Below are positions 34,764 through 48,336 of a stretch of 64,000 bases of DNA, one piece after another (the stretch's first letter is position 1; each line of letters opens with the position of its first letter). The notes under the pieces were generated by a model. The model saw only the letters and a program-made list of their open reading frames with translations. It had not been told where the DNA came from and searched no databases. The translations under genes were made by a program, and so were the position numbers. The stretch is from Promethearchaeota archaeon (GTDB lineage: Archaea; Asgardarchaeota; Lokiarchaeia; Sigyniarchaeales; SOKP01), in NCBI GenBank assembly GCA_016930515.1, contig JAFGGO010000085.1, forward strand, positions 8,740 through 72,739. Reading direction: 5' to 3'.

Positions 34764-35243
34764 TTAGAAATTCAGTGGGGATAAGAATATGGATAAAGCA
34801 ATAAAAGCCATTGTCGTTCCCAAAATAACGCAGAAAAAATTTGCCATCAGATCGTCGTAGGGAATTCTGGCTATTCGCACTCGTTTATTTGGGAAGACGG
34901 GTACTCCCGAGCAATTTAACGCGTCCAAGAAAATGTGCCCTAAAAAGATAAGATAAACAGAAATGAAAACAAAAAAACCTAAAGAAGGAGTTACTATCGA
35001 AAATGGTGATCCGATCATTATAGCAATAAATAATAGAAGGGGTGAAAATGGCGAATGGGTCAGAAACCTTCGTTCGTGCTTGAAATATATTTCATGATCG
35101 AGCCAATCGTTAGCTTTTCCGGCAAAGTATAACACTGCTAAAATTAACAATAAAAAAAACCCTAGCGGGTGGAATATGTTATATGTGACGGTTAAAAGGG
35201 ATCCGAAACCTAACGAGAATGCAATATGGGCGTATTGCTTCAT
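34764..35243 (-). CDS. Membrane metal-dependent hydrolase (YdjM/DUF457-like)
   Basis: AH, DWLDH, RRFLTHS, GHIFLDALN.SGVP. Confidence 0.8.
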   Translation of the reverse strand: MKQYAHIAFSLGFGSLLTVTYNIFHPLGFFLLLILAVLYFAGKANDWLDHEIYFKHERRFLTHSPFSPLLLFIAIMIGSPFSIVTPSLGFFVFISVYLIFLGHIFLDALNCSGVPVFPNKRVRIARIPYDDLMANFFCVILGTTMAFIALSIFLSPLNF

Positions 35244-35246
35244 GAT

Positions 35247-35585
35247 TCAAATGGCTCCTAACCTTTCCTCGATTCTTTTTAATCGAACACTCGCCTGTTT
35301 TAGAAGATCGTCTTTTTCCCTTAATTCGCTCATTAGCTGTTCCATTTTCTCACTTTTTTCAGTTGCATTTTTTGGGTTATATTTTACAACCTCGTTCAAA
35401 TAGAACGGAAAAAGGTCGCATAATTCTTTATATAAGCTTGCAAGGACTTCGATCGCTTGTTTTTTGGCTCTCCTAACTTCGATGTTTCCAGAATTGAGCT
35501 GATTTAAAGCATTCATCAATTTCGCAATGTATTCCTCCTTAAAGACCGTTTTTTCTAGAATTTCTTTAAATAATTCGTCGTTCAA
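35247..35585 (-). CDS. Hypothetical coiled-coil protein
   Basis: 112 aa helical, charged ORF tightly packed in the operon. Confidence 0.7.
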   Translation of the reverse strand: MNDELFKEILEKTVFKEEYIAKLMNALNQLNSGNIEVRRAKKQAIEVLASLYKELCDLFPFYLNEVVKYNPKNATEKSEKMEQLMSELREKDDLLKQASVRLKRIEERLGAI

Positions 35586-35598
35586 ATCATATTCCTCC

Positions 35599-38500
35599 TT
35601 AACTAGTGCTCTTGTTTTTTTCTATAATAACTTGTAAATAACTATGTAATTCTTTAATATTATCGTAAATTAAAATAACATCATCACTATTTGGGTCCTC
35701 CTTAGTTTCAATTAAGCGACATTTGTTCAATATATCAATCGCTAAAAGCGCCCAATCAATGTTTAAAATTACTCCTAGATACTCAAATAACGATTCCAAA
35801 GCTTTATTGTTGAAATCCTTTTCTTTATCACCTTGTGCAATATTAGTCATGAAATTAAGAATTGCTTTTTTTTCTTGCTCAAGAGCATCTTTATAATTTC
35901 TAGTATTTATTGAACGATAGATCGTAAAAATATCTTGCAAGAACAAAGATATTGAATTCTTAGCCCGGTTCATGTAAATATTGCGTTTTTCTCTTTTTTC
36001 ATGATTTTGATCGCGTTCTCGTGGATAAATAATCTCAGGTTCTCTATCCTTAGATTCAAACGATATAACCTCTGGGATTTCTAACAAGGCCGATTCTTTC
36101 GCTTCAAAATAATCCTTCAACGCTCTTTCGAATTTTTCTCCAACAGAATAGGAAGAACGTAAAGATTCTGCTCCACTAGCCTCTAAAGGATGTTGTTCTA
36201 CTAAATAATCGTGCTGAACTAATATTGAAAACAAATCGTCCCTAATCTTGTTTATTTTGTGCTTAAATTTTCTTTTTTTGACAATTTTTGACGCTTTATT
36301 ATATATATACTTCATGAGTTCTTCCTTAACTCTTCTTTCACTTAAATTTCCTACCTTATGAATAGTTTTCAGTCCATTGAGAAATTTAACGATGTCTTCA
36401 ACGAAGCCTGAATAAATTTCAAAATCTTTCTCAAACAATGTTTTATTGGCTTGTCGAGCAATTTCCTTTTCTGCAAATTCCATATCGTATCCTTGATTCT
36501 TCATGAAAGCAACAATCTCTTTTTGGCTTGGGACTCGCAGGTCTTTTAATTCATCGAGATCTAGCTGAACTGGAAAAGGTTGATCAATATCTGAACGCTT
36601 CACAACTATTTCTGCGGGTGTCATCGTAGATAAGTAGTTAATCTGGAAAGTTTCGTTCCTGCTGGAACTGTAAATACCAGATCCATGAAGCTTCCTGAAA
36701 TTCATTGAATATCCAATATAAGAAGCGTCGCACTTATTAAATATTCGAAAGGTTGCTAAATTCTTGAAAAACGAAAATGCGTGTTCGTGTAAATATCTGG
36801 CTTTATTAGCCGAAGCAATCACACCAAAACCAAGGTTAAAAAGACTTCCTAAAAATTTATCAATTTTGCCATAATTACCCATTTTATTCAAGTATGATTC
36901 TTCAAAAAAAGCATCGATGTGAGGGATGACGAGGATCTTTTCTCGCACGCTTTGTCCAACTGAACTCAAGATATCGGAGTGACGTGAAATGTGAATTATT
37001 TTCGCTGCTATTAAAAAAGAAGCAAAAACTTTTCTTCTTATATCGTTCAAAATCGATAAATCAATAATAATCGTAGAATCGTCGTTAATGAAATCTAAGG
37101 TAGTGATTGCACTTGTACCTTGCTCCGAACTTACAAAAAAAGCCATTTCTTGACCTGTAAGATCTTCAAACAATGTCCTCAAGGAATCGGTTGCTGGATT
37201 AGTGTTCCATTCGGGATTAGTTTCAATATCTAATTTTATCGAATTTATGTCAAAATCTTTTTCGAGTTTTGAAATGGATCTTTTAAAAGCCTCCATGATT
37301 CGTTCGTCCTTACGGAAGGATATTGAGTATGCATCAGCAACAAAATCCAAGTACGAAGGATTTTCTGTATCGTACGGTAAGTCAGATCTTATCAAATCGA
37401 TGGTGTAGGATTTTCCAAGCTTGAAAAAAGCCAGATTTTCCTCGTATCTCGAGTTCTTGAAATGCTTTAGCAATTTAGACCATTCTCCGGTGTGATCGAA
37501 GACGATACACGGCACGCTATTTTTAACGAGCTGAATTACGGTTTTCATCATTGCTTTTTCTTTCATGCCGTCAAACCCATTCAGAAATAATAAGTTTTGT
37601 ACTTGTTCGAATGTAAATCCGGCTTGAACTTCAGATTCCAAGACTTCGGTGTTAATGGTATTTCCCAAAACAACGAAATTTTCGAGATATAAAGGCGTGT
37701 TAAACTCGGAAGCAATTTTGACTTCGAGACCCTTTTTGAGTTGTGGAAACAGATCAATGAGGTTTGTTAATGTTTTACCCTGTTGTAATAAATAAACCAG
37801 GTTTGAGCCATTCGTGCGGAAAAACTTATTTTTTAAGAGAGTTAACAAGCATGCAGATAATAGGGTTTCATGCTGGGTAAGAGTTATTCTATAATTTGGC
37901 AAGCTAGTTTGATATGAATTAATAAGCTCTCTCGCAACTTCGCTTAAAGATACTTCTAATTCAAGAGCGTTTCTCACGTTCATCTCCGTTACGTGCTTAT
38001 ATTCGCTCGTTGATAAAGTAAAAATGCACCTCCAAATCCCTCCTCTCATGTTCATGAATGTTTCTCGTTCCATCAATGTTCTTAACGAATTTAAGCTTGT
38101 TTGGGTTTTTTGGTTTAATAATTTCCGTGCCTCGCTTTCGAAGCTCTGAAATAGCATTGGAGCAACCGTTCCTGTATATGTGAAAGGAATCCTTAAGGGA
38201 ATGATCGATTGAAAAAAACTATCTGGACGCGCTAAGGGTCTATTCTGGAACCCAAAAAAAGGGGGATTGGCGCGAGCCATATTAAAGAATTTCGTCCCAA
38301 TGAGGAGTTTTTTGTTCACCAAAGAATAAAGAGTGCTGGGCGTTCCCGATAACCAATAAAAAAACACATCTTGAAAGGGATTTATGATAGTCATGGAACT
38401 ATCTTGAAAATTTGAAAGCATAACTTTGAAAAAAATCGACTTCCAAAATAAAATGATATGAATAAATGCTACTAACGCCCCCGTTGCGATAGATAAATGA

Positions 38501-39462
38501 AATCCCGCTCCAATCTTCCACATGAACAAGGTTAGAACTGTAAAAACTAAAATTAAATACGTGATTTTCGAGCTATATTCTACTATCAAGCGTCCATAGT
38601 CTTGTTTCACATCTTTCGCTGGTGGAACATCAGTTCCTAAGAAGAATGTCCTAAGGGCGTTTATCAGCTCGAGACCTTTCAATTCGATAATTCTGAAATG
38701 ATGGAAATTCGCTTTAAATCCCGATTTAGCCGTTGAGATGTATTCATCTAATGTATTCATTAAATATCTTAACTTGCGAGCGTTTAACATGCCTTTAAAA
38801 TCGTAATAAAAACAGAAATAAATTGAAGTTTTCATTGAAGAAATTGAGCTTGATATCGAAGTATTCTTTGAGGTCGTTGCATTTACCACTGGAAAATTAA
38901 TCAGTGGTGCTTGAATTACTTGATAAGTAAAAGGCACATTTTGGGAATTGAGATATTTAAAAAAGCTGTTCATGTTGGGATTCACATTTTCTGGTACAAT
39001 GGAAATCTTAAATATTTTTAATCCAACGGAAATCAAGTCCTTGTGATTACTATAGAAGACCACATCAGATCGAGTTTTTAGTTGCCAAAATCTGAAGTTT
39101 TTAAAAGGATTAAGTTTGGTAACGCTGCGTAATCTGAAGGTTGAAAAAAAGGCAAGCTTGAATATTTCGTCTTTAAAAGCGATTAAAAACAATATCAGAC
39201 TAAACGAAACAAGTACTAATGTTAGTAATAAATCGTTAAATTCAAGCCAGATATAAACGCTTAAAAGCGCTAATACTGCGATCACTAATCCACTTTTTAT
39301 ATAAATTATTCTAAGATTCGAATCCTTAAAACAGGGACTAGTTTTCCAAATGTTATAAAAATTGGTTGGTTCTTCTACTACGCTCTCGTCCTTGAACTTT
39401 TTTCTTAAAACATCGTTAGAACCAAGGGTTTCGTGACCTCTCCCAAGAATTCTATAACTCAA
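35599..39462 (-). CDS. Large membrane HerA/VirB4(FtsK)-like protein with degenerate ATPase motifs
   Basis: Duplicated 2TM+soluble N-module; HerA-like VVLG...G....NLLFLNG, CIVFDHTGEW, IIIDLS and IVVKRS...PFPVQ; TTG 39462 overlaps the upstream stop after a GAAGGAGG SD. Confidence 0.7.
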   Translation of the reverse strand: MSYRILGRGHETLGSNDVLRKKFKDESVVEEPTNFYNIWKTSPCFKDSNLRIIYIKSGLVIAVLALLSVYIWLEFNDLLLTLVLVSFSLILFLIAFKDEIFKLAFFSTFRLRSVTKLNPFKNFRFWQLKTRSDVVFYSNHKDLISVGLKIFKISIVPENVNPNMNSFFKYLNSQNVPFTYQVIQAPLINFPVVNATTSKNTSISSSISSMKTSIYFCFYYDFKGMLNARKLRYLMNTLDEYISTAKSGFKANFHHFRIIELKGLELINALRTFFLGTDVPPAKDVKQDYGRLIVEYSSKITYLILVFTVLTLFMWKIGAGFHLSIATGALVAFIHIILFWKSIFFKVMLSNFQDSSMTIINPFQDVFFYWLSGTPSTLYSLVNKKLLIGTKFFNMARANPPFFGFQNRPLARPDSFFQSIIPLRIPFTYTGTVAPMLFQSFESEARKLLNQKTQTSLNSLRTLMERETFMNMRGGIWRCIFTLSTSEYKHVTEMNVRNALELEVSLSEVARELINSYQTSLPNYRITLTQHETLLSACLLTLLKNKFFRTNGSNLVYLLQQGKTLTNLIDLFPQLKKGLEVKIASEFNTPLYLENFVVLGNTINTEVLESEVQAGFTFEQVQNLLFLNGFDGMKEKAMMKTVIQLVKNSVPCIVFDHTGEWSKLLKHFKNSRYEENLAFFKLGKSYTIDLIRSDLPYDTENPSYLDFVADAYSISFRKDERIMEAFKRSISKLEKDFDINSIKLDIETNPEWNTNPATDSLRTLFEDLTGQEMAFFVSSEQGTSAITTLDFINDDSTIIIDLSILNDIRRKVFASFLIAAKIIHISRHSDILSSVGQSVREKILVIPHIDAFFEESYLNKMGNYGKIDKFLGSLFNLGFGVIASANKARYLHEHAFSFFKNLATFRIFNKCDASYIGYSMNFRKLHGSGIYSSSRNETFQINYLSTMTPAEIVVKRSDIDQPFPVQLDLDELKDLRVPSQKEIVAFMKNQGYDMEFAEKEIARQANKTLFEKDFEIYSGFVEDIVKFLNGLKTIHKVGNLSERRVKEELMKYIYNKASKIVKKRKFKHKINKIRDDLFSILVQHDYLVEQHPLEASGAESLRSSYSVGEKFERALKDYFEAKESALLEIPEVISFESKDREPEIIYPRERDQNHEKREKRNIYMNRAKNSISLFLQDIFTIYRSINTRNYKDALEQEKKAILNFMTNIAQGDKEKDFNNKALESLFEYLGVILNIDWALLAIDILNKCRLIETKEDPNSDDVILIYDNIKELHSYLQVIIEKNKSTS

Positions 39463-40355
39463 GAGTGTCCCTCCTTCAGATAAATAAACCAATAGATTGC
39501 CAAAGTGAATAATATTAGTACAAAAAATAACAAGCTCATTCCATAACACGCTTCGCTAATTTCGGGATGTAAGATGTTTTGAATCAATAATAGGATGAAA
39601 AACAAAATCGATGCGATTGAAGTCCCTAAGAGAAAATAACCCGGTATTTCTTGGGTACTTCTCTTGTAAAAGATATTTGAAGATATATTTCCTGCGCATT
39701 TAATTTTATTGTTATTGTTGTTTTTAAGATTTTCTTCACATGATTTAAGTTGGTACAACTCTTCGAATTGGTTTTTATCATAACGCTTGTTCAATGAATT
39801 TTCCAGGTTTGCTTGTTTTTGTTTAATTTCCCTCAAGAGGAGATTTTTGACTATGTCCGTCCGTTCTTTTTTAAACGAGAAAATAGAATTCCTATTCTGA
39901 GGGAGGGTTAATGAGTTGAATATGAGCATATTATCTGATTTATTTTTTTGAAAAGACTCACTTTTTACATGTGAAAAATTTGGCGCTTCTATTTTCCGTA
40001 AATCGTAATAAAGGCCGATAAGTTCTGGAATATTTTTAATCGGTATCGACTGACCAGCTTTTTCGAATACTTTCTCGAGTTTTTTTGTTTTTTCTATCAT
40101 GTCTGTTTTGAATATACCCTTTCCAAGCTTCTTTTCGATCGAGTCATTAATCATTTCCATGCAAATCCACGCATTTTTCCCTTGCTCTTCGATGATTTGG
40201 GAAAATCCCATTCTAATTCCCGTTTCTCTAACATGATTTATTATCAAATTAATAAAAACAATCGATAATTTCTTATTGTTATTTGTTTCTAAACATAATT
40301 GTACCAAGTGTCTCAATTTGGCGTCTAATACTCCGTATTTAGGTGTCAGGCTCAT
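39459..40355 (-). CDS. Hypothetical protein with two C-terminal TM helices
   Basis: 298 aa, translationally coupled in the operon. Confidence 0.75.
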   Translation of the reverse strand: MSLTPKYGVLDAKLRHLVQLCLETNNNKKLSIVFINLIINHVRETGIRMGFSQIIEEQGKNAWICMEMINDSIEKKLGKGIFKTDMIEKTKKLEKVFEKAGQSIPIKNIPELIGLYYDLRKIEAPNFSHVKSESFQKNKSDNMLIFNSLTLPQNRNSIFSFKKERTDIVKNLLLREIKQKQANLENSLNKRYDKNQFEELYQLKSCEENLKNNNNNKIKCAGNISSNIFYKRSTQEIPGYFLLGTSIASILFFILLLIQNILHPEISEACYGMSLLFFVLILFTLAIYWFIYLKEGHS

Positions 40356-40357
40356 TA

Positions 40358-41095
40358 TTATCTCCTTCTCTTGTTAAATTTATATAGAATATTAGTAGCC
40401 AAATCGTTTTTCTGAGTTGCACCTATAGCTATTTCTTCTTCAACAATATATTTATCGATTGGAACGACTTCTTGATGCTTGAGAATTGCCTTTTCTATTG
40501 TAGCCTTTAAAGTTTCCTCATCCGTGTCAAATCTTTTTAAAGTTTGAACTGTAAACACGGTATGTGGAAACAATGCAACAAAGGCCAAGATTTGGAGCCC
40601 ATAACCATAGCTAATGGTGTAGTTTAATTTAAGGTTGTTTTCTAAATCAACAATTTTGAGGAAAGGAAAATATAAATCATCTGAAAGGACATATTGATAA
40701 GGTAATATTACCAAAAAATACCCATTCAATATTATTAATAATAAATTACAATACGCAAATGGTTGTGATTGTCTTGTTGAGTTAGTTTTTTCGATTGTCT
40801 TAAACGCAACACCATAAACACAAATGAAAATAAGTACTATTACAATAACGCTTATTATAAAACCTTCTTGGAGAGATTTTGGATGATAACTTTCGTTAGG
40901 CGGATCGGCTTTTGAAATACTTGTATTCCATCCAATAAATAGGTTTAGTGTCCAGTCTACCATGAGCAATCCATCAGCAGAGTAAGCTTGAAATCGATAC
41001 CATTCAAAAAAAAAGGAAACAAATAAGATTGCCGTTCCTATTAGGAACATCCATTTGGAAAAGTCTGCATTACTGCTTTCGGAATTTGTTCCCAA
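40358..41095 (-). CDS. Hypothetical 4-TM membrane protein
   Basis: 245 aa with four hydrophobic segments, in the operon. Confidence 0.75.
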   Translation of the reverse strand: MGTNSESSNADFSKWMFLIGTAILFVSFFFEWYRFQAYSADGLLMVDWTLNLFIGWNTSISKADPPNESYHPKSLQEGFIISVIVIVLIFICVYGVAFKTIEKTNSTRQSQPFAYCNLLLIILNGYFLVILPYQYVLSDDLYFPFLKIVDLENNLKLNYTISYGYGLQILAFVALFPHTVFTVQTLKRFDTDEETLKATIEKAILKHQEVVPIDKYIVEEEIAIGATQKNDLATNILYKFNKRRR

Positions 41096-41102
41096 TGATA
41101 AA

Positions 41103-43142
41103 TCAATCCTCCAGGAATTTACTATATTTTCGGACCAAATTCTCGTTTAAATCGTTAAGGAGTTGATTTTTATACGAAGTGAATTCTAATTGTTCGGCTT
41201 TTACCTCACTTGCTTTCAGCGTATTTTTTATTTCCAAGTCAGATAGTAACTTAAACTTAACGGGATTCAAACCGTGCTCGTAAACAAATTGATCAAGGAA
41301 AGGACCTTCTAAACGATCGGCTATTAGAATTAAATCAGAATCGTCAATCTCTAAAGCACGTCCATATTCTCCGTCATCCTGTTGCTTTTTTAAATTTCGT
41401 TGACTTTGAAAAAATGAATATGAAATAAAGGATAGTCCCGAAATCATCAAAATCATCATTCCAAAACTCACCATCAGAATGGGAAAAGTCATTGAACGAT
41501 TAACCACGGTAAATAATAGCAATCCAATACCAAATAAGGAAAATGGAATTGAAAATATTGTTGCTTTTTTTAAAGTTTTATCGCAGCTATTAATATATTC
41601 CTCAAGAAAAGTCTCGTTCTTTACAAGCGAATTTGTAATGAAGTGTTTTTTTTCCAAATAATCTAATAAATCAGAGAGTTGGGATTCGCTAACCACATGC
41701 ATATTTTTCTTTTTCTGATAGGCAAAAGGAACTTTCAATGCTTCGAGAAATCTAACATCTCCTTTTGAAACGAGTATTGGTGTAATTATAGTTTTTATAA
41801 CTAGTTCTTTTGTTTTTAATATCCTTGTATTACCAGAGAAAGGTTTTTGAACGGATAAATCCTCTTGAAAATATTTAGATAGATAAGAAAGAACGGATCC
41901 TGCCTTATCGATGTTAGATAACAATTTCTGAGTAGTTATTTTTAAAGCCTTAATTCCAGATTCTACGAGCAAGCGTTCCTTGTAAGGATTTAACGAATCT
42001 ATTCCTGCTTTGGGATGATATTTGATCTCTTCTTCTCCGATTTTCAGATCTCCCGTGGTTTTGGCGAGCTTAATTGGCACGATGAGAACAATCTCCATCA
42101 AATCAGACACTTGGACGCTTTTAATCCCAATTGCATCTACTTGTTGGAATAATTCTATATACATTGTTTTTCTTGAAGGAAGTAATGAGAAACCTCCAGA
42201 ATGAAGAAAATTCTCAATTTTTCTGATCAAACTAGAAGATTCTTTCCAATCCAATAGTTCATCCTCAAGCTCTGCTCTATTTTCGCTCTGGTTTTCTTGA
42301 AACATAGAATTTTTTAGAATTTTTTTTTGAAGAGTGCAATTAGTAACTTGTTGGTTTTTATCTTCTTCAAAATCCTCAATGTTGAAATCAGGAAGATTCT
42401 CCTCTACAGATTCAGTTTCTATCAAATCATATATTTCTTCAATATCTAGTCTATTCTTAAGAGAATCATCTATATCTCCCAAAGTTTCAATTTGCTCTAA
42501 ACTTTTAATCGATGCATTATCAGCATTTAAGGTTAATTTTATATCTATTGATTTTGCATCTTTTTCTTCAAATTTAGACTTTACAGGAACGAAGTTTTTC
42601 AAGCTTTCTTGCTGCATTTGATATTTAGCTGCTCTAATATATTTCTCAGCGGATTTTGCTGCAATTCCTTTTATCGAGCATAATTGACCGATATTTTTGG
42701 ACGCTAAATCTTGAAGGGTATGAATTCCTGCTTGTCTAAATAAATTGGCAGTTGTCACACCAATTCCGTTTATTTGACTAATATCTGTCGTTCCTTTCTT
42801 TACGCTCGCCACGAAAGGCTTACTAGTATCTTCTTTAGAATTAACTTCTTTGACGACCATTTCTTGTTCTCCTTTAGGTGTTATAATATCAGCAACGTCC
42901 GCGATAGCTTGCTTCTTGTCCGTATCTGAAATTATAATTTTAACTTCCGATAAAATACTTCGAAATAAATTTATCCACTTTTTACTCTGAATTTTTTCGG
43001 ATATTTCGATTCCTTTTCGAATTAAAACGAGCGCTTGTTCGTAATCGAGAGTTTCAATGGCTTGATTTACGCTATCTTCAAGAATCGTGAGATCCCATTC
43101 TACTTCGAGGTCTTGTTCGTCAATTTGATCGATTGTAGTCAT
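41103..43142 (-). CDS. Membrane-anchored helix-hairpin-helix DNA-binding protein
   Basis: INGIGVTTANLFRQAGI..LQDLA...IKGIAAKSA (double HhH), acidic linker, two TM near the C-terminus. Confidence 0.8.
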   Translation of the reverse strand: MTTIDQIDEQDLEVEWDLTILEDSVNQAIETLDYEQALVLIRKGIEISEKIQSKKWINLFRSILSEVKIIISDTDKKQAIADVADIITPKGEQEMVVKEVNSKEDTSKPFVASVKKGTTDISQINGIGVTTANLFRQAGIHTLQDLASKNIGQLCSIKGIAAKSAEKYIRAAKYQMQQESLKNFVPVKSKFEEKDAKSIDIKLTLNADNASIKSLEQIETLGDIDDSLKNRLDIEEIYDLIETESVEENLPDFNIEDFEEDKNQQVTNCTLQKKILKNSMFQENQSENRAELEDELLDWKESSSLIRKIENFLHSGGFSLLPSRKTMYIELFQQVDAIGIKSVQVSDLMEIVLIVPIKLAKTTGDLKIGEEEIKYHPKAGIDSLNPYKERLLVESGIKALKITTQKLLSNIDKAGSVLSYLSKYFQEDLSVQKPFSGNTRILKTKELVIKTIITPILVSKGDVRFLEALKVPFAYQKKKNMHVVSESQLSDLLDYLEKKHFITNSLVKNETFLEEYINSCDKTLKKATIFSIPFSLFGIGLLLFTVVNRSMTFPILMVSFGMMILMISGLSFISYSFFQSQRNLKKQQDDGEYGRALEIDDSDLILIADRLEGPFLDQFVYEHGLNPVKFKLLSDLEIKNTLKASEVKAEQLEFTSYKNQLLNDLNENLVRKYSKFLED

Positions 43143-43170: not shown

Positions 43171-43188
43171 TATATTTAAAGAAAAAAA
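43171..43188 (-). promoter_or_regulatory. T7-C-TTTAAATATA promoter motif
   Basis: TATA ends about 30 bp before ATG 43142; the same motif precedes other cluster operons. Confidence 0.6.
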
Positions 43189-43305: not shown

Positions 43306-45294
43306 TTAACGATTGAATTCTATATTATAATTTTCTGTCTCCATATATACTTTCACACCTGCGTCTTTTAAGGTGTCGAGAATTTTAAAAGATTCAATGT
43401 CACCTTGTTCGATAAAGGGGTTGTTTATCAACCACACTTCTTCGAGTGAATTTAAGGAAGAAAACGAATTGGGAAGCGATATCAAAAGGTTGTTATGCAG
43501 GTACAATTTTCGAAGAGATGAAAGGTTGCCAATCGATTCGGGTAGCGTTTCTAGGGCGTTATTTTGGAGGGAAAGGATTTCAAGAGATGAGAGGTTTCCA
43601 ATGGTTTCTGGTAGCTTTTTTAACCTGTTCCACGAGAGATTTAACTCTTCAAGGCTTGCAAGATTCCCAATTGAGTCAGGAAGTTCACTCAAGCGGTTAT
43701 CGTAAATTAGTAACTTTTTAAGTGAATTGAGTTTACCTATAGTTTCGGGTAAAGAAGTCAAGATATTTCTTTCCAGAGAAAGCCCTTGGAGCATTACAAG
43801 GTTTCCGATTGATGTTGGAAGCGTGGAGAGTTGATTGTCATGAATCCATATTTCTCTCACTAGTTCAAGATTTCCCATGGATTCAGGGAGTTTATGTAAT
43901 TGATTTGATTGGAGGAAAAGGAACCTGAGTGATGCGAGGTTTCCAATTGATTCAGGAAGTTCCCTTAATTTATTAGTGAATAACCACAGTTGTTGGAGTG
44001 AAGTGAGATTCCCAATAGTTTCTGGAAGATATTCTATTTCATTTTTTTGCAGGTATAATATTTTAAGGGATAAAAGATATCCAATTGATTCTGGAAGCTC
44101 CTTGAGCATGTTCGCTTCTAAATCTAAAGTGAGTAGGTTATGGATGTTTCCAATAGATTTTGGAACTCTCAATAACCGATTATTTGAGGCTAAAATAACT
44201 TGTAATGAAGTAAGATTAGAGATCGTCTCGGGAAATGATTCAAGTAAATTATTTGATATATAGATTTTTTCTAAGCAAGAAAGATCACCAAGAGACTCTG
44301 GAAGTTCCTTTAATAAATTATTTTGCAGATAAATCCTTTTAAGAGAGCTTGATTTGCCAATATTTTCTGGGAGCGAAGAAATCCTGTTAAATTGAGCCTC
44401 CAACGCTTGAAGCGAATAGAGTTTCTCAATATTGTTAGGCAAAGATTCGAGTTTATTATTACCTATTGACAAAGATTTTAACGAAGACAAGTTGCCAAGA
44501 GATTCTGGAAGGTAAATTAAATTATTTTCGCTAAGATCCAAGATTCGCAATTTTTCAAGGTTACCGAGAGAATCAGGAACTTCAATCAACTTATTACGCC
44601 TTATATTTAATTCTCTGAGCGTTTTAAGGTTGCCCATCCATTCAGGAAGCGTTTTTAATCGATTGTGTGTCAACCATAACTTTTTGATGGTAAGGTGATT
44701 TTTTAATCCCTTAAGAAGATTGAGATCGGTAATGTACTTTTGTCGAAGGTCTAAAATGTTCTTGACCGTGGGGATTGATTTGAAGTAATGTTGAATGGAT
44801 TTTGATACAACTTCGATTTCCTCCTCATTGAAATAGCTTAGATAAGCTTGCTCTAAAAGGTATTTAACAACCGAGGGATAACCACTCGATATTCGCTTGG
44901 CGATTTCATCTTTAAAGATCTTTTTAGCTAGGGGATCCCCAACTTCTGACAGTTTTTTAAGCAAGGGAAAAGAAAGATTGCTGTGAAGCAAACGCGTGTC
45001 GTAATTATTTTCATTCCAGGTTTGAAGGTTTGAACAATGTCCCCAGAATTCTTGAATTGGTGTAATATCGTGAATTCCCCCCTCGTATATTCGATTATTA
45101 TGTAAGGTTTTGAAAATTTCAGATGCTTGATCGATGGTATCTATTTGGTCGTATTCGGATGCTTGATCCTTAAAAATTTTCAGGACAAGTCTCATGCATT
45201 GTAAGAACTTTTCTCCGTTAATGTATATGAAAGTTTTATCGTCTTCAAGTCTTAGCTTTATGTAGGCATTGACCGTAAATTCCATGGAATCCAT
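43306..45294 (-). CDS. Leucine-rich repeat protein with Lokiarchaeia-type N-terminal domain
   Basis: About 19 repeats of 23 aa LPESIGNLxxLxxLxLxxNxL; N-domain EFWGHCSNLQ.W...YDTRLLHSNLSFPLLKKL. Confidence 0.92.
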   Translation of the reverse strand: MDSMEFTVNAYIKLRLEDDKTFIYINGEKFLQCMRLVLKIFKDQASEYDQIDTIDQASEIFKTLHNNRIYEGGIHDITPIQEFWGHCSNLQTWNENNYDTRLLHSNLSFPLLKKLSEVGDPLAKKIFKDEIAKRISSGYPSVVKYLLEQAYLSYFNEEEIEVVSKSIQHYFKSIPTVKNILDLRQKYITDLNLLKGLKNHLTIKKLWLTHNRLKTLPEWMGNLKTLRELNIRRNKLIEVPDSLGNLEKLRILDLSENNLIYLPESLGNLSSLKSLSIGNNKLESLPNNIEKLYSLQALEAQFNRISSLPENIGKSSSLKRIYLQNNLLKELPESLGDLSCLEKIYISNNLLESFPETISNLTSLQVILASNNRLLRVPKSIGNIHNLLTLDLEANMLKELPESIGYLLSLKILYLQKNEIEYLPETIGNLTSLQQLWLFTNKLRELPESIGNLASLRFLFLQSNQLHKLPESMGNLELVREIWIHDNQLSTLPTSIGNLVMLQGLSLERNILTSLPETIGKLNSLKKLLIYDNRLSELPDSIGNLASLEELNLSWNRLKKLPETIGNLSSLEILSLQNNALETLPESIGNLSSLRKLYLHNNLLISLPNSFSSLNSLEEVWLINNPFIEQGDIESFKILDTLKDAGVKVYMETENYNIEFNR

Positions 45295-45421
45295 CCTTAC
45301 CCAATTTTAAAATTAATGAACTTAATAATATTTAAATAATCCCTTAAAAGAAATTGCTATCGAATTTGCGTGTTCAATTCTTTAAAAATCTAATGGCAAT
45401 ATTGGTTCAAAAATATTTCTT

Positions 45422-45436
45422 TTTTTTGTTTATATA
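45422..45436 (+). promoter_or_regulatory. T-run-G-TTTATATA promoter variant
   Basis: In a divergent intergenic region, 54 bp before ATG 45491. Confidence 0.4.
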
Positions 45437-45490
45437 TACTGATAACACATACAAATCAATGTATTTATCAATAAAACGAGGTATTATAAA

Positions 45491-45802
45491 ATGGTAATAA
45501 CAGAAAAGAATCTTAAAGATATCGTAAAGTACAAGCAAAACACGAAAAATGCTCATAAATGCCCATTTTGTAAGAAAAAGATAGAAATTGGAATTGAATA
45601 TGAAATGTTGAGCAAGTTGAAAGAAGAAAACCGCTTTCCATACCCTCACGTGGTATTACACGGTAATCCTCTTCATGCAATGGTGTGCTATATAGATAGT
45701 AATTTAACTGTAAGAAATGTGAGCGTCATCAAGAGTGTTGAAATATCTCGCGATTCAGAAACATTTGCACAATTGATGAATAAATGGGCAAATCCGTATT
45801 AA
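45491..45802 (+). CDS. Small putative Zn-binding protein
   Basis: CPFC plus H.VLHG.PLH...YID.N..VR; 14 bp upstream of the helicase. Confidence 0.75.
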   Translation: MVITEKNLKDIVKYKQNTKNAHKCPFCKKKIEIGIEYEMLSKLKEENRFPYPHVVLHGNPLHAMVCYIDSNLTVRNVSVIKSVEISRDSETFAQLMNKWANPY

Positions 45803-45816
45803 TTCGGTGAAAAGCC

Positions 45817-48336
45817 GTGGATTTAATCGATTTTGCAAGCGAGACGAAAAAATCGCAACTTTTAAAGGACAAGAAGGACGAAATTTTTGCCTATATATCT
45901 GACGAAAGAATTTTAAGGGCCCTCTTCGAATCAAAAATTTTTAGATTGAGGAATATTCAGAAGGAAACTATAGAAAAAGGTCTTTTTTTTGGGAAATCAT
46001 TTTTAATATGTGCTCCGTCTGGGAGTGGAAAAACGCTAATTGGAGAGTTGTGCGCCGTGAACACGGCACTTCAATGCTTAGGCAAGGCGGTATATCTTGT
46101 TCCTTTTAAAGCTCTTGCTACTGAAAAATATGTTCACTTTAAAAAAACTTATGAAAAATATGGCTTGAAAGTGATACTTTCCATTGGAGATTACGACGCT
46201 GAAGATTCGGAATTGGCTAGGGCAGACGTGATAGTGACAACATACGAAAAATTGGATTCCTTGGTCCGAAACTTCCATTATAAGGAATGGATTTTCGAAA
46301 TTACGAGTATTATTATCGATGAGATTCATATTATTGGCGAAGGCGATCGCGGCCCTCGTTTGGAGTCCTTGATCGTGAGACTCAACGATTTTTTAAACCA
46401 CCCCCAGATCGTAGGCCTCTCCGCAACTATTGCGAATCCAGAAACGTTTAATTCTTGGCTATCTTCACTCGGAAATATATCTACTCTTATTTATTCAGAT
46501 CATCGACCTGTGCCTTTGCATTACAACATACTTCGCACTCAAAACAAGGAATCAACTATCAAGAAATTAACGAGCAAGACATTGGAAGAAGGAGGTCAAG
46601 TTGTGGTTTTTTTAAACACGAGAAAAAATACAAGGGAACAGGCCTTTAACTTGAAAGAAACCGTAAAACGCTTTATCATAGAAGAAGATCGCCAAAAACT
46701 CGTTAAGATAGCTAATGACTTGAAAGAAGTGAAGGGTTTTAATCAAGATTTAAAGAAGATACTCCTCAATGGTGTAGCATTCCATCACGCAGGGCTCTTA
46801 CCAAAGGAACGAAAGCTCGTGGAGGATAACTATCGACAAAAGCTAATCAAGGTACTTTGCTGTACAACCACGCTTTCGGCAGGTGTAAACATACCTGCTC
46901 GAGTCGTCATTTTAAAGAACTTTAAAAAATATGTAACCTCTGGAAAAAGGATTGGTAATTTCGAGGGTTTTCACGAGAATAGTGATGGATTTACCTACTT
47001 TAAAGCGTTTACATCAAATGAGGTCTTTCAAATGCTTGGAAGAGCAGGAAGACCGGGCTTAGATAGCGTAGGAAGAGGATATATCTTAGTAAAAGATCTT
47101 GAAGAGAAAGAATGGGTGGAGGAATATTACTTTAAATCGCTTGATATTCAATCGCTTGAATTGATACCTCGATATAACGACCTGCTTTCCTCTCTGAACA
47201 ATATGAATACTCTCATGGAACAAACCTTATTGAGAGTATATGAAGAAGAAAAAGTTACTCTCGAAAGAATTGTTTCTTTTTTTGAAAAAACCTATTTTTG
47301 GTATAATACCAAGGAAAATGATAGGATGCGTCAAATTCCAATTGAGGAACTATTGATGATTCGCGAGATCTCAGCATTGAATGTGCTTAAATTGCATTCC
47401 CATCCAAATAAAGTAGAGGAATTAAAGAAAAGAGACAATGGTGTAAAAATCACGGGTTTAACAAAATCGACGATTAATGGATATGTCAAATCGGAATTTG
47501 GCGTTTTCTCCTGCCAGTTCGACATAAATACGGGTGTTCGATGTAGTTGCGGGTTTGAGAATGGGATTTCAGATAATTTTGCAAAACAAGAATTTTCGTT
47601 TGAATTTTGCGACCATATAACCTTGTTTCTAATGCACCTCCTCAAGCGAGATCAAGGCAATTTCTTAAAACACATTAATGATATCGTTCCTAAATCCGTC
47701 AAAAATCAATATGTGCTCAATTACTTGTTCGACAAGGGTCTTTTACTTAAGATTGCAGGAGAAAACATATGTTGTTCAAGATTTGGTCGTTTGATCGTTT
47801 CTCTTTATTTATATCCCATGTCCGGAGTGTTAATAAGACATCGTCTTGAAAATATCGAAATAAAGACATATAAGGACCTCATCACGGAAGCTTACGGCAT
47901 ACTTAAAGCGGAAAAAAAGGTTCGAGACAACAAGATGCTCCTTCCTGTTGTAGAATACGCCGACGAGGTACCATTGGATCAAATCATTGAAGATCACGGA
48001 ATATTTGCCGGGGATTTATACGCGGTTAAGAATAACATGGAACGCGTCATGGTATTCATAAAAGAAATTGCCAGACATTTGAGCGAAACCGATCCTTCTC
48101 TCGTTGAGGTAACTGAAATGGCCGAAACCTTAACTATAAGATTAAAGCACGGAATTAAAGAGGAGTTATTTGACTTGGTATTGAGGCTTCCAAATGTAGG
48201 AAGGTCGAGGGCTCGAATTCTTTACGACGCTGGCTTCCACACAGTAGAACAAGTAAGAAAGCAGAACTACTACTTGCTTCACAGAAAAACGGGATTAGGC
48301 GTTCGAACTTGTAAGAAATTAGTCGCCAAGGAATAA
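45817..48336 (+). CDS. Ski2-like SF2 helicase (Hel308/Hjm family) with inserted SWIM Zn finger and C-terminal HhH
   Basis: APSGSGKT, DEIH, GLSAT, HHAGL, QMLGRAGRPG; CSC-x19-CDH; LPNVGRSRARILY.AG. Confidence 0.9.
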   Translation: MDLIDFASETKKSQLLKDKKDEIFAYISDERILRALFESKIFRLRNIQKETIEKGLFFGKSFLICAPSGSGKTLIGELCAVNTALQCLGKAVYLVPFKALATEKYVHFKKTYEKYGLKVILSIGDYDAEDSELARADVIVTTYEKLDSLVRNFHYKEWIFEITSIIIDEIHIIGEGDRGPRLESLIVRLNDFLNHPQIVGLSATIANPETFNSWLSSLGNISTLIYSDHRPVPLHYNILRTQNKESTIKKLTSKTLEEGGQVVVFLNTRKNTREQAFNLKETVKRFIIEEDRQKLVKIANDLKEVKGFNQDLKKILLNGVAFHHAGLLPKERKLVEDNYRQKLIKVLCCTTTLSAGVNIPARVVILKNFKKYVTSGKRIGNFEGFHENSDGFTYFKAFTSNEVFQMLGRAGRPGLDSVGRGYILVKDLEEKEWVEEYYFKSLDIQSLELIPRYNDLLSSLNNMNTLMEQTLLRVYEEEKVTLERIVSFFEKTYFWYNTKENDRMRQIPIEELLMIREISALNVLKLHSHPNKVEELKKRDNGVKITGLTKSTINGYVKSEFGVFSCQFDINTGVRCSCGFENGISDNFAKQEFSFEFCDHITLFLMHLLKRDQGNFLKHINDIVPKSVKNQYVLNYLFDKGLLLKIAGENICCSRFGRLIVSLYLYPMSGVLIRHRLENIEIKTYKDLITEAYGILKAEKKVRDNKMLLPVVEYADEVPLDQIIEDHGIFAGDLYAVKNNMERVMVFIKEIARHLSETDPSLVEVTEMAETLTIRLKHGIKEELFDLVLRLPNVGRSRARILYDAGFHTVEQVRKQNYYLLHRKTGLGVRTCKKLVAKE

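Follow-up and report, generated by a model that had tools for sequence, protein, structure and literature searches.

The stretch of DNA analyzed here (the window) comprises 64,000 nucleotides (nt) of contig JAFGGO010000085.1 from the Promethearchaeota archaeon assembly GCA_016930515.1, and the gene under study, at 35599..39462 (-), encodes a VirB4-like protein of 1,287 amino acids (aa) that we term the giant. As judged by predicted folds, the giant is a full-length VirB4 homolog, with two helical hairpins as its membrane anchors. The list of open reading frames (ORFs) of the window places the minus-strand ORF at 35599..39549 (-); the start adopted here is a TTG at 39462, which overlaps the end of the upstream 298-aa gene by 4 nt and gives a form identical to the database protein P0002. 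There are at least 33 orthologs of ~1,250-1,350 aa, the number of relatives recovered in a word-seeded search at 24-73 % identity, and those that are named come from Promethearchaeota, Lokiarchaeota or Hodarchaeota, i.e. Asgard archaea. An exhaustive profile search with the giant family retrieved 295 proteins at E <= 0.001, comprising the orthologs, a distant set with the same two lobes (~1,230-1,410 aa) and a class of ~770-850 aa in which the match spans only the second hairpin through the end of the ATPase-like domain. Sequence libraries recognize little of this: NCBIfam, PADLOC and PHROGs gave no match to the giant, the curated VirB4 models (CagE_TrbE_VirB or AAA_10 in Pfam, and those in NCBIfam) likewise gave none, and Pfam gave only a sub-threshold match to DUF87 (16.5 bits against a cut-off of 23.2, E 0.009; profile positions 46-217) that begins past the P-loop. 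A sequence profile search of the PDB returned only HerA 8j4u, at E 2.

The N-terminal part of the giant consists of two transmembrane (TM) hairpins, each followed by a soluble lobe. Hairpin 1 lies at 39175..39315 (-) (residues 50-96; hydropathy, with model helices at 50-75 and 78-95) and lobe 1 at 38653..39123 (-) (residues 114-270); hairpin 2, at 38446..38598 (-) (residues 289-339; hydropathy and model), separates it from the homologous lobe 2 at 37834..38394 (-) (residues 357-543). The repeat is detectable in the single sequence (residues 60-225 against 303-475, BLASTP E 1e-08) and between family profiles (45-285 against 290-545; hhalign probability 99.4 %, E 5.2e-21, 227 columns). A model of the N-terminal 600 residues, built with 68 sequences (predicted local distance difference test score, pLDDT, 86; predicted template modeling score 0.85), was used for Foldseek searches, in which all 14 matches at E <= 0.001 were to TrwK, the VirB4 of plasmid R388. 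With the exhaustive structure aligner VIA, TrwK residues 15-402 superposed on model residues 118-578 at Z 26.2 (root mean square deviation, rmsd, 4.3; 332 residues aligned), as against Z 5.3-8.8 for unrelated chains. Because this superposition runs across both lobes, the two soluble modules together are, in the model, the complete VirB4 N-terminal domain, lobe 1 corresponding to its first half, with hairpin 2 inserted between the lobes. The initial annotation, made from the sequence alone, had described a HerA/VirB4-like protein with a duplicated N-terminal module. The duplication is real, but it represents the two VirB4 N-terminal lobes, each with a TM hairpin, rather than an extra copy added to a HerA; similarly, the likeness to VirB4 extends over the whole length, whereas the likeness to HerA does not, as residues 1-600 significantly match VirB4 N-terminal domains only. 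Lys and Arg abound in the N-terminus and in the segments past each hairpin, and the short loops between the helices are acidic or neutral in composition; given the positive-inside rule, and since a hairpin brings the chain back to the side it came from, the soluble parts of the giant should all be cytoplasmic.

The lobes are followed by a RecA-like domain of the FtsK-HerA/VirB4 type at 36523..37725 (-) (residues ~580-980). In an AlphaFold model of residues 520-1030 (mean pLDDT 74, core above 85), Foldseek matched this domain to HerA (4d2i, E 2.8e-14) and VirB4 (4ag5, E 2.8e-08), and also to TrwB and Cag-beta. VIA ranked the C-terminal domain of DndH (7es4; Z 25.9, rmsd 3.7, 326 aligned), VirB4 (4ag5; Z 25.1, rmsd 3.7, 333 aligned) and HerA (4d2i; Z 24.7, rmsd 4.5, 330 aligned) ahead of TrwB (Z 21.7, rmsd 3.7, 345 aligned), with FtsK and EccC at Z 12-14 and RecA-like proteins at Z ~9. 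The FtsK-HerA fold suspected in the initial annotation is thereby recovered with both tools (VIA Z ~25), and in these model comparisons the scores of the C-terminal domain alone cannot tell HerA from VirB4. A two-copy prediction of the RecA-like domain (residues 579-989) scored 0.00 without controls and is uninformative either way. The remainder of the protein is a C-terminal extension at 35602..36510 (-) (residues 985-1287) with a conserved, winged-helix-like core at residues ~1081-1120 (36103-36222). A PDB profile search with the C-terminal 300 aa gave no meaningful sequence match. Weak matches to the Pfam MAGE homology domain, a tandem winged helix, were observed in 9 of 61 orthologous C-terminal regions (best E 8.7e-05), and residues 985-1287 of the window protein itself gave no MAGE match in Pfam.

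The catalytic motifs of the RecA-like domain are degenerate. At the Walker A position (37543..37596 (-), residues 623-640), which opens with NLLFLNGFDGMKE (residues 623-635), the sequence follows the scheme strand, N-G-x4-K/R-E, helix, and the model has a strand at 623-627, a loop at 628-632 and a helix at 633-647. The Walker B position (36901..36939 (-), residues 842-854) reads K-hhhh-P-x-h-D-x-F-F, with ILVIPHID at 843-850; here the modeled strand 843-846 is followed by P847, a proline in place of the Walker Asp/Glu. In the sensor and arginine-finger strand (36787..36825 (-), residues 880-892) S-A-N-K/Q occupies the place where HerA and FtsK have T-Q-R-P. The flanking elements quoted in the initial annotation are likewise present, namely IVFDHTGEW (652-660), IIIDLS (798-803) and IVVKR...PFPV (952-966). 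Motif counts were taken over 69 full-length orthologs, and the Walker A position was also assessed in 176 retrieved relatives. Across these orthologs the Walker A position reads hhhh-N-G-x4-R-(E/D), with G629 in 68/69, position 634 being R in 59/69 and K in 4/69 (K in the window copy and its two nearest relatives) and position 635 being E or D in 52/69; at the Walker B position P847 is present in 67/69, position 850 is D in 63/69 and E in 6/69, and no ortholog departs from K842 or F853. At the P-loop position a canonical Walker A (GxxGxGKT) is missing from all 69 full-length orthologs and from all 176 retrieved relatives. Distant classes have GGTxEQR or GGSHKERT at this position, and some of them have an acidic Walker B, e.g. 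IFLDDAEE.

An intact HerA from the same genome (GAGKS, IIEEAH, SQRP) aligns with the giant in hhalign only weakly (E 0.13), albeit collinearly over 307 columns. In this weak alignment R/K634 takes the place of the Walker lysine, E635 that of the Walker serine and P847-H848 that of the Walker B acidic pair, and the finger position of the giant lacks an arginine; the PDB HerA 8j4u, when aligned, concurs in the finger region (S-A-N-Q against S-T-Q-R). Another candidate Walker A, AFFKLGKS (678-685), fits the regular expression and was rejected: it sits in a beta strand with no helix following, and Ala occupies its first position in only 4/69 orthologs, as opposed to Leu in 57/69. The frequency of the majority residue is 0.63-0.68 in the block 561-640 and 0.57-0.62 in 841-960, as compared to 0.28-0.49 in 1-520, making the RecA-like domain the best-conserved part of the giant. 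The loss of the P-loop glycines and Ser/Thr, of both Walker B acidic residues and of the arginine finger is fixed across the clade. Given that this loss is clade-wide and that conservation is highest in that very domain, the giant is well supported as a fixed, ancient and selected pseudo-ATPase rather than a decaying gene; the dead Walker motifs and pseudo-ATPase status proposed in the initial annotation therefore extend to the whole family. The giant very probably does not hydrolyze ATP.

The giant is the fourth of six minus-strand genes separated by intergenic gaps of 7, 2, -4, 13 and 3 nt. The first, at 41103..43142 (-), encodes a 679-aa helix-hairpin-helix (HhH) protein with a match to HHH_5 above the Pfam cut-off (E 1.1e-09) and a C-terminal TM hairpin. 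It is followed by a 245-aa protein with approximately four TM helices, counted by eye (40358..41095 (-)), and a 298-aa protein with a C-terminal TM hairpin, also recognized by eye (39459..40355 (-)). Downstream of the giant by 13 nt is a 112-aa coiled-coil protein (35247..35585 (-)), and 3 nt past this gene a 159-aa YdjM-like membrane protein (34764..35243 (-)). Apart from the HhH protein, none of the operon partners matched a family in Pfam, NCBIfam, PADLOC or PHROGs. At the loci L001 and L003 (giants 36-37 % identical) the first five genes are found in the same order, and orthologs of the HhH protein are also present there; the immediate neighbors of the giant recur in six more genomes (L013-L018). 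Both the 245-aa and the 298-aa genes are kept at L001, L003 and L013-L018, and the coiled-coil gene at L001, L013 and L015-L018, its place in L001 and L003 being occupied by genes of 117-118 aa. The YdjM-like gene may share the operon transcript in the window, and a ~640-aa DUF998 membrane protein lies downstream in L001 and L003 instead. A candidate promoter-like box, a T-run plus TTTAAATA (43171..43188 (-)), lies ~30 nt upstream of the HhH gene. The HhH ortholog of L003 (L003:6050-8398 (+)) contains a domain of the NYN/Zc3h12a ribonuclease type (residues 162-290, E 1.7e-17), at the place where the window protein has an acidic linker.

Divergent from the operon, at 45817..48336 (+), is a gene for a Hel308-like superfamily 2 (SF2) helicase with DEAD, Helicase_C, archaeal domain 4 and C-terminal HhH modules. 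Its orthologs, 60-61 % identical, lie beside the operon in L001 and L003, and in the window it is followed by a Hef-like helicase and a DUF5817 gene, as in L001. The initial annotation had further supposed that the giant may partner an active ATPase encoded elsewhere. No linked ATPase of the HerA type was found, the seven DUF87 ORFs of the genome all being on other contigs, and the conserved ATP-hydrolyzing neighbor is this Hel308-type helicase. Between it and the operon lies a gene for a 662-aa leucine-rich repeat (LRR) protein (43306-45294 (-)), which lacks both a signal peptide and TM segments. Since L001 and L003 have no such gene at that place, it probably represents a lineage-specific insertion, and its NCBIfam matches to type III secretion LRR effectors were set aside as due to the repeats only. 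Directly upstream of the helicase gene is an ORF of ~103 aa (45492-45803 (+)) with a CPFC Zn-ribbon-like motif, preceded at ~45417-45437 by a T-run and TTTATATA box that resembles the box at 43171-43188.

To place the giant in a phyletic context, its distribution was surveyed in 301 sampled genomes of the phylum. The full-length form is found in 54/68 sampled genomes of the window's own family and is rare in other families. It is present in one copy per genome, with the exception of G171, which has two full-length copies (G171:C23:228627-232208 and G171:C22:59801-63367), one of them with an in-frame TAA. A 1,189-aa ORF at the locus L002 was considered as a paralog and rejected. One genome of a different family (f24, 1/21) also has a full-length giant (G241:C266:1807-5313), for which transfer or mis-binning is possible. 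The distant forms in other Asgard families are single-lobe proteins (~760-790 aa) or are split between two genes, one for a hairpin plus lobe (~280-350 aa) and one for the ATPase-like part (~520-570 aa). Neighborhoods were counted at 22 loci carrying such distant relatives, within each fetched stretch: a Hel308-like gene is present at 11/22, RadA at 9/22 and XPD at 5/22, with at least one of Hel308-like, RadA, XPD and Hef at 16/22. The linkage to helicases and recombinases thus survives differing gene orders in several Asgard families. With only three Hel308/Ski2-like genes across the 4 Mb of the window's own genome, adjacency by chance would be expected at ~1 %. At two loci (L019, G038:C1:2528000-2546000, and L020, G112:C1:10000-26000) a split or single-lobe relative is co-directional with RadA, XPD-type and Hel308-like genes, and the Hel308-like helicase of these loci has a weak match to the SWIM zinc finger. 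The window's own genome encodes five Rad51/RadA-family ORFs (three with strong full-length-type scores), all of them outside the window's contig.

Taken together, the conserved operon and the Hel308-type neighborhood suggest a previously undescribed membrane-bound DNA-handling machine, and we favor, as a prediction of function, the explanation that the giant is a catalytically dead, VirB4-derived membrane hub of such a complex. In the proposed mechanism the giant would be anchored in the membrane via its two hairpins, with its soluble parts facing the cytoplasm, and would serve as a non-hydrolyzing hub, probably a ring, joined by the four membrane, coiled-coil and HhH partners of the operon. 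The HhH domains, and possibly also the C-terminal winged-helix region of the giant, would hold DNA, the co-located Hel308-type helicase would do the motor work, and the product would be handed to recombination enzymes. The parts of this picture are of unequal strength. That the giant forms a cytoplasmic-face hub, probably as a VirB4-like ring, with the 4-TM, the 298-aa anchored, the coiled-coil and the membrane-anchored HhH proteins is likely; a role in DNA handling is slightly favored; and DNA import or exchange between cells in the manner of the Ced/Ted systems is a tentative and rather unlikely extension. A slightly less probable one is that a dead VirB4 ring would act as a membrane dock from which the Hel308-type helicase, and not a pump of the VirB4/HerA type, would drive DNA through the membrane or along it, feeding a dedicated pathway of RadA-based recombination, the whole being a chromosomally fixed derivative of conjugation in Asgard archaea.

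Several observations weigh against the hub explanation. No VirB6-, VirB2- or pilin-like partner was recognized in the operon by library scans; the soluble domains all appear cytoplasmic and nothing in the operon obviously reaches the cell exterior. At L002, where the divergent member P0031 is encoded, the operon partners and the helicases are all missing within 10 kb. The neighborhood counts overstate the support, since related genomes do not amount to independent samples. Finally, a basic residue is retained at the position of the Walker lysine (R; K in the window copy) together with the conserved D850, and the giant may therefore still bind a ligand.

Among the alternatives, one retains the scaffold and changes its purpose: the giant could be a membrane scaffold for protein secretion, envelope or protrusion biogenesis, or signaling, with the helicase neighborhood being incidental or regulatory. 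Protein secretion is also among the roles of VirB4 systems, DNA binding by the giant itself is only conjectured, and the operon partners other than the HhH protein belong to no recognizable family. However, we consider this unlikely, in view of the HhH protein in the operon itself and of the linkage to Hel308-like, RadA and XPD genes, which is maintained across several Asgard families despite their differing gene orders. Somewhat less probable is a non-canonical active nucleoside triphosphatase, in which R/K634, E635, K640, D850 and D/E854 would rebuild a nucleotide site and the giant itself would be the translocation motor. It would account for the P-loop region being among the most conserved parts, for the basic residue at the Walker-lysine position in 63/69 and the D/E850 in 69/69 orthologs, and for the more canonical elements (GGSHKERT and IFLDDAEE) retained by distant split relatives. 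Against this, the glycine before the lysine, the Ser/Thr ligand of Mg, the Walker B acidic pair (Pro in 67/69) and the arginine finger are all replaced, and in the weak hhalign alignment with the same-genome HerA the loop exceeds a P-loop by two residues; moreover, Walker K-to-R variants of RecA-family ATPases bind ATP and barely hydrolyze it.

An improbable proposal is that the giant belongs to an anti-phage defense system, comparable to HerA-Sir2, HerA-DUF4297 or DndFGH, or to the remnant of an integrated conjugative element. The best structural matches do include the DndH C-terminal domain and defense HerAs, and one orthologous HhH protein has a nuclease domain. Nevertheless, PADLOC and PHROGs gave no matches, the gene is single-copy, is present in 54/68 genomes of the family and occupies a syntenic chromosomal site with no integrase in the flanks inspected, and the defense ATPases of this fold are not known to lack intact Walker motifs. 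The possibility of a once-active ATPase decaying in this genome, which has only the degenerate motifs themselves in its favor, is refuted by an intact ORF of 1,287 aa and by orthologs down to 24 % identity that all share the same substitutions, in the domain that is the most conserved.

The preferred explanation, a catalytically dead VirB4-derived hub, has several implications. Among type IV secretion components VirB4 is described as the signature motor, and ATPases derived from it are reported to be needed by the Ced/Ted importers as well (PMC12857230, PMC4027160, PMC9905601). A clade that keeps the full VirB4 body under strong selection without its catalytic residues would point to a second, structural role for the fold. 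The linkage to Hel308-like, RadA and XPD genes offers a testable candidate for DNA handling or exchange at the membrane in Asgard archaea, a matter relevant to how eukaryotic recombination and sex originated. Within its single chain the giant further shows the two VirB4 N-terminal lobes to be homologous repeats, which helps explain the split arrangement of CedB and CedD. In the literature searched we found no description of the giant's family or of a motor-dead VirB4 clade, and this study contributes the assignment of the two modules to the two lobes of VirB4, together with the counts for the two-lobe family.

Comparison with known systems sets these features in relief. With HerA (4d2i, 9x1m), the defense HerAs (8j4u, 8xav) and the DndH C-domain (7es4) the giant has the RecA-like fold in common (Z 24.7-25.9), as well as HerA-type flanking motifs (DxxGEW, IIIDLS); unlike HerA, its N-terminal region matches VirB4, with neither a HAS-barrel nor a HerA chain among the matches listed, and no NurA, Sir2 or DUF4297 partner was seen in the operon. 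EccC/EssC of type VII secretion belong to the same superfamily (structural matches at Z 12-14), and their second and third ATPase domains are regulatory, with weakly hydrolyzing sites. These weakly active EccC domains share a chain with an active one; in the giant, unlike in EccC, the only domain of this fold in the chain is dead. With VirB4 (TrwK of R388, PDB 7o43, 7o42, 8rtd; 4ag5 being the C-terminal domain of the Thermoanaerobacter VirB4) the giant shares the entire architecture of a two-lobed N-terminal domain and a RecA-like domain, and association with the membrane is common to both. It differs from VirB4 in the loss of Walker A, Walker B and the arginine finger, in the additional C-terminal region of ~300 aa, and in being chromosomal and lineage-conserved, with no recognized VirB2/B6/B8-11 or VirD4 genes adjoining. 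Furthermore, it has two integral TM hairpins, one before each lobe, whereas VirB4 is described as membrane-associated via VirB3/VirB8 (PMC11868833).

The Ced and Ted systems are portrayed as chromosomal derivatives of type IV secretion systems that import DNA for repair, with a functional tie to recombinational repair (PMC9905601). Their ATPases, CedB and CedD of Sulfolobales and TedB of Thermoproteales, compared here by description, are like the giant archaeal, chromosomal and VirB4-derived, with TM segments. CedB and CedD are each described as combining a TM segment with a separate portion of the N-terminal domain of VirB4 (PMC11868833), and the single-lobe Asgard relatives resemble them in having one such part. 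The differences are also clear: the Ced/Ted ATPases are described as the power source, whereas the giant has lost its catalytic residues and has both lobes in one chain; neither a CedA/VirB6-like channel nor a CedA1/VirB2-like pilin was recognized in its operon, and, unlike Ced/Ted, it is partnered by a membrane protein with HhH domains and by a helicase of the Hel308 type. On the best reading of these likenesses, the system of the giant would stand closest, among those known, to the Ced/Ted DNA importers.

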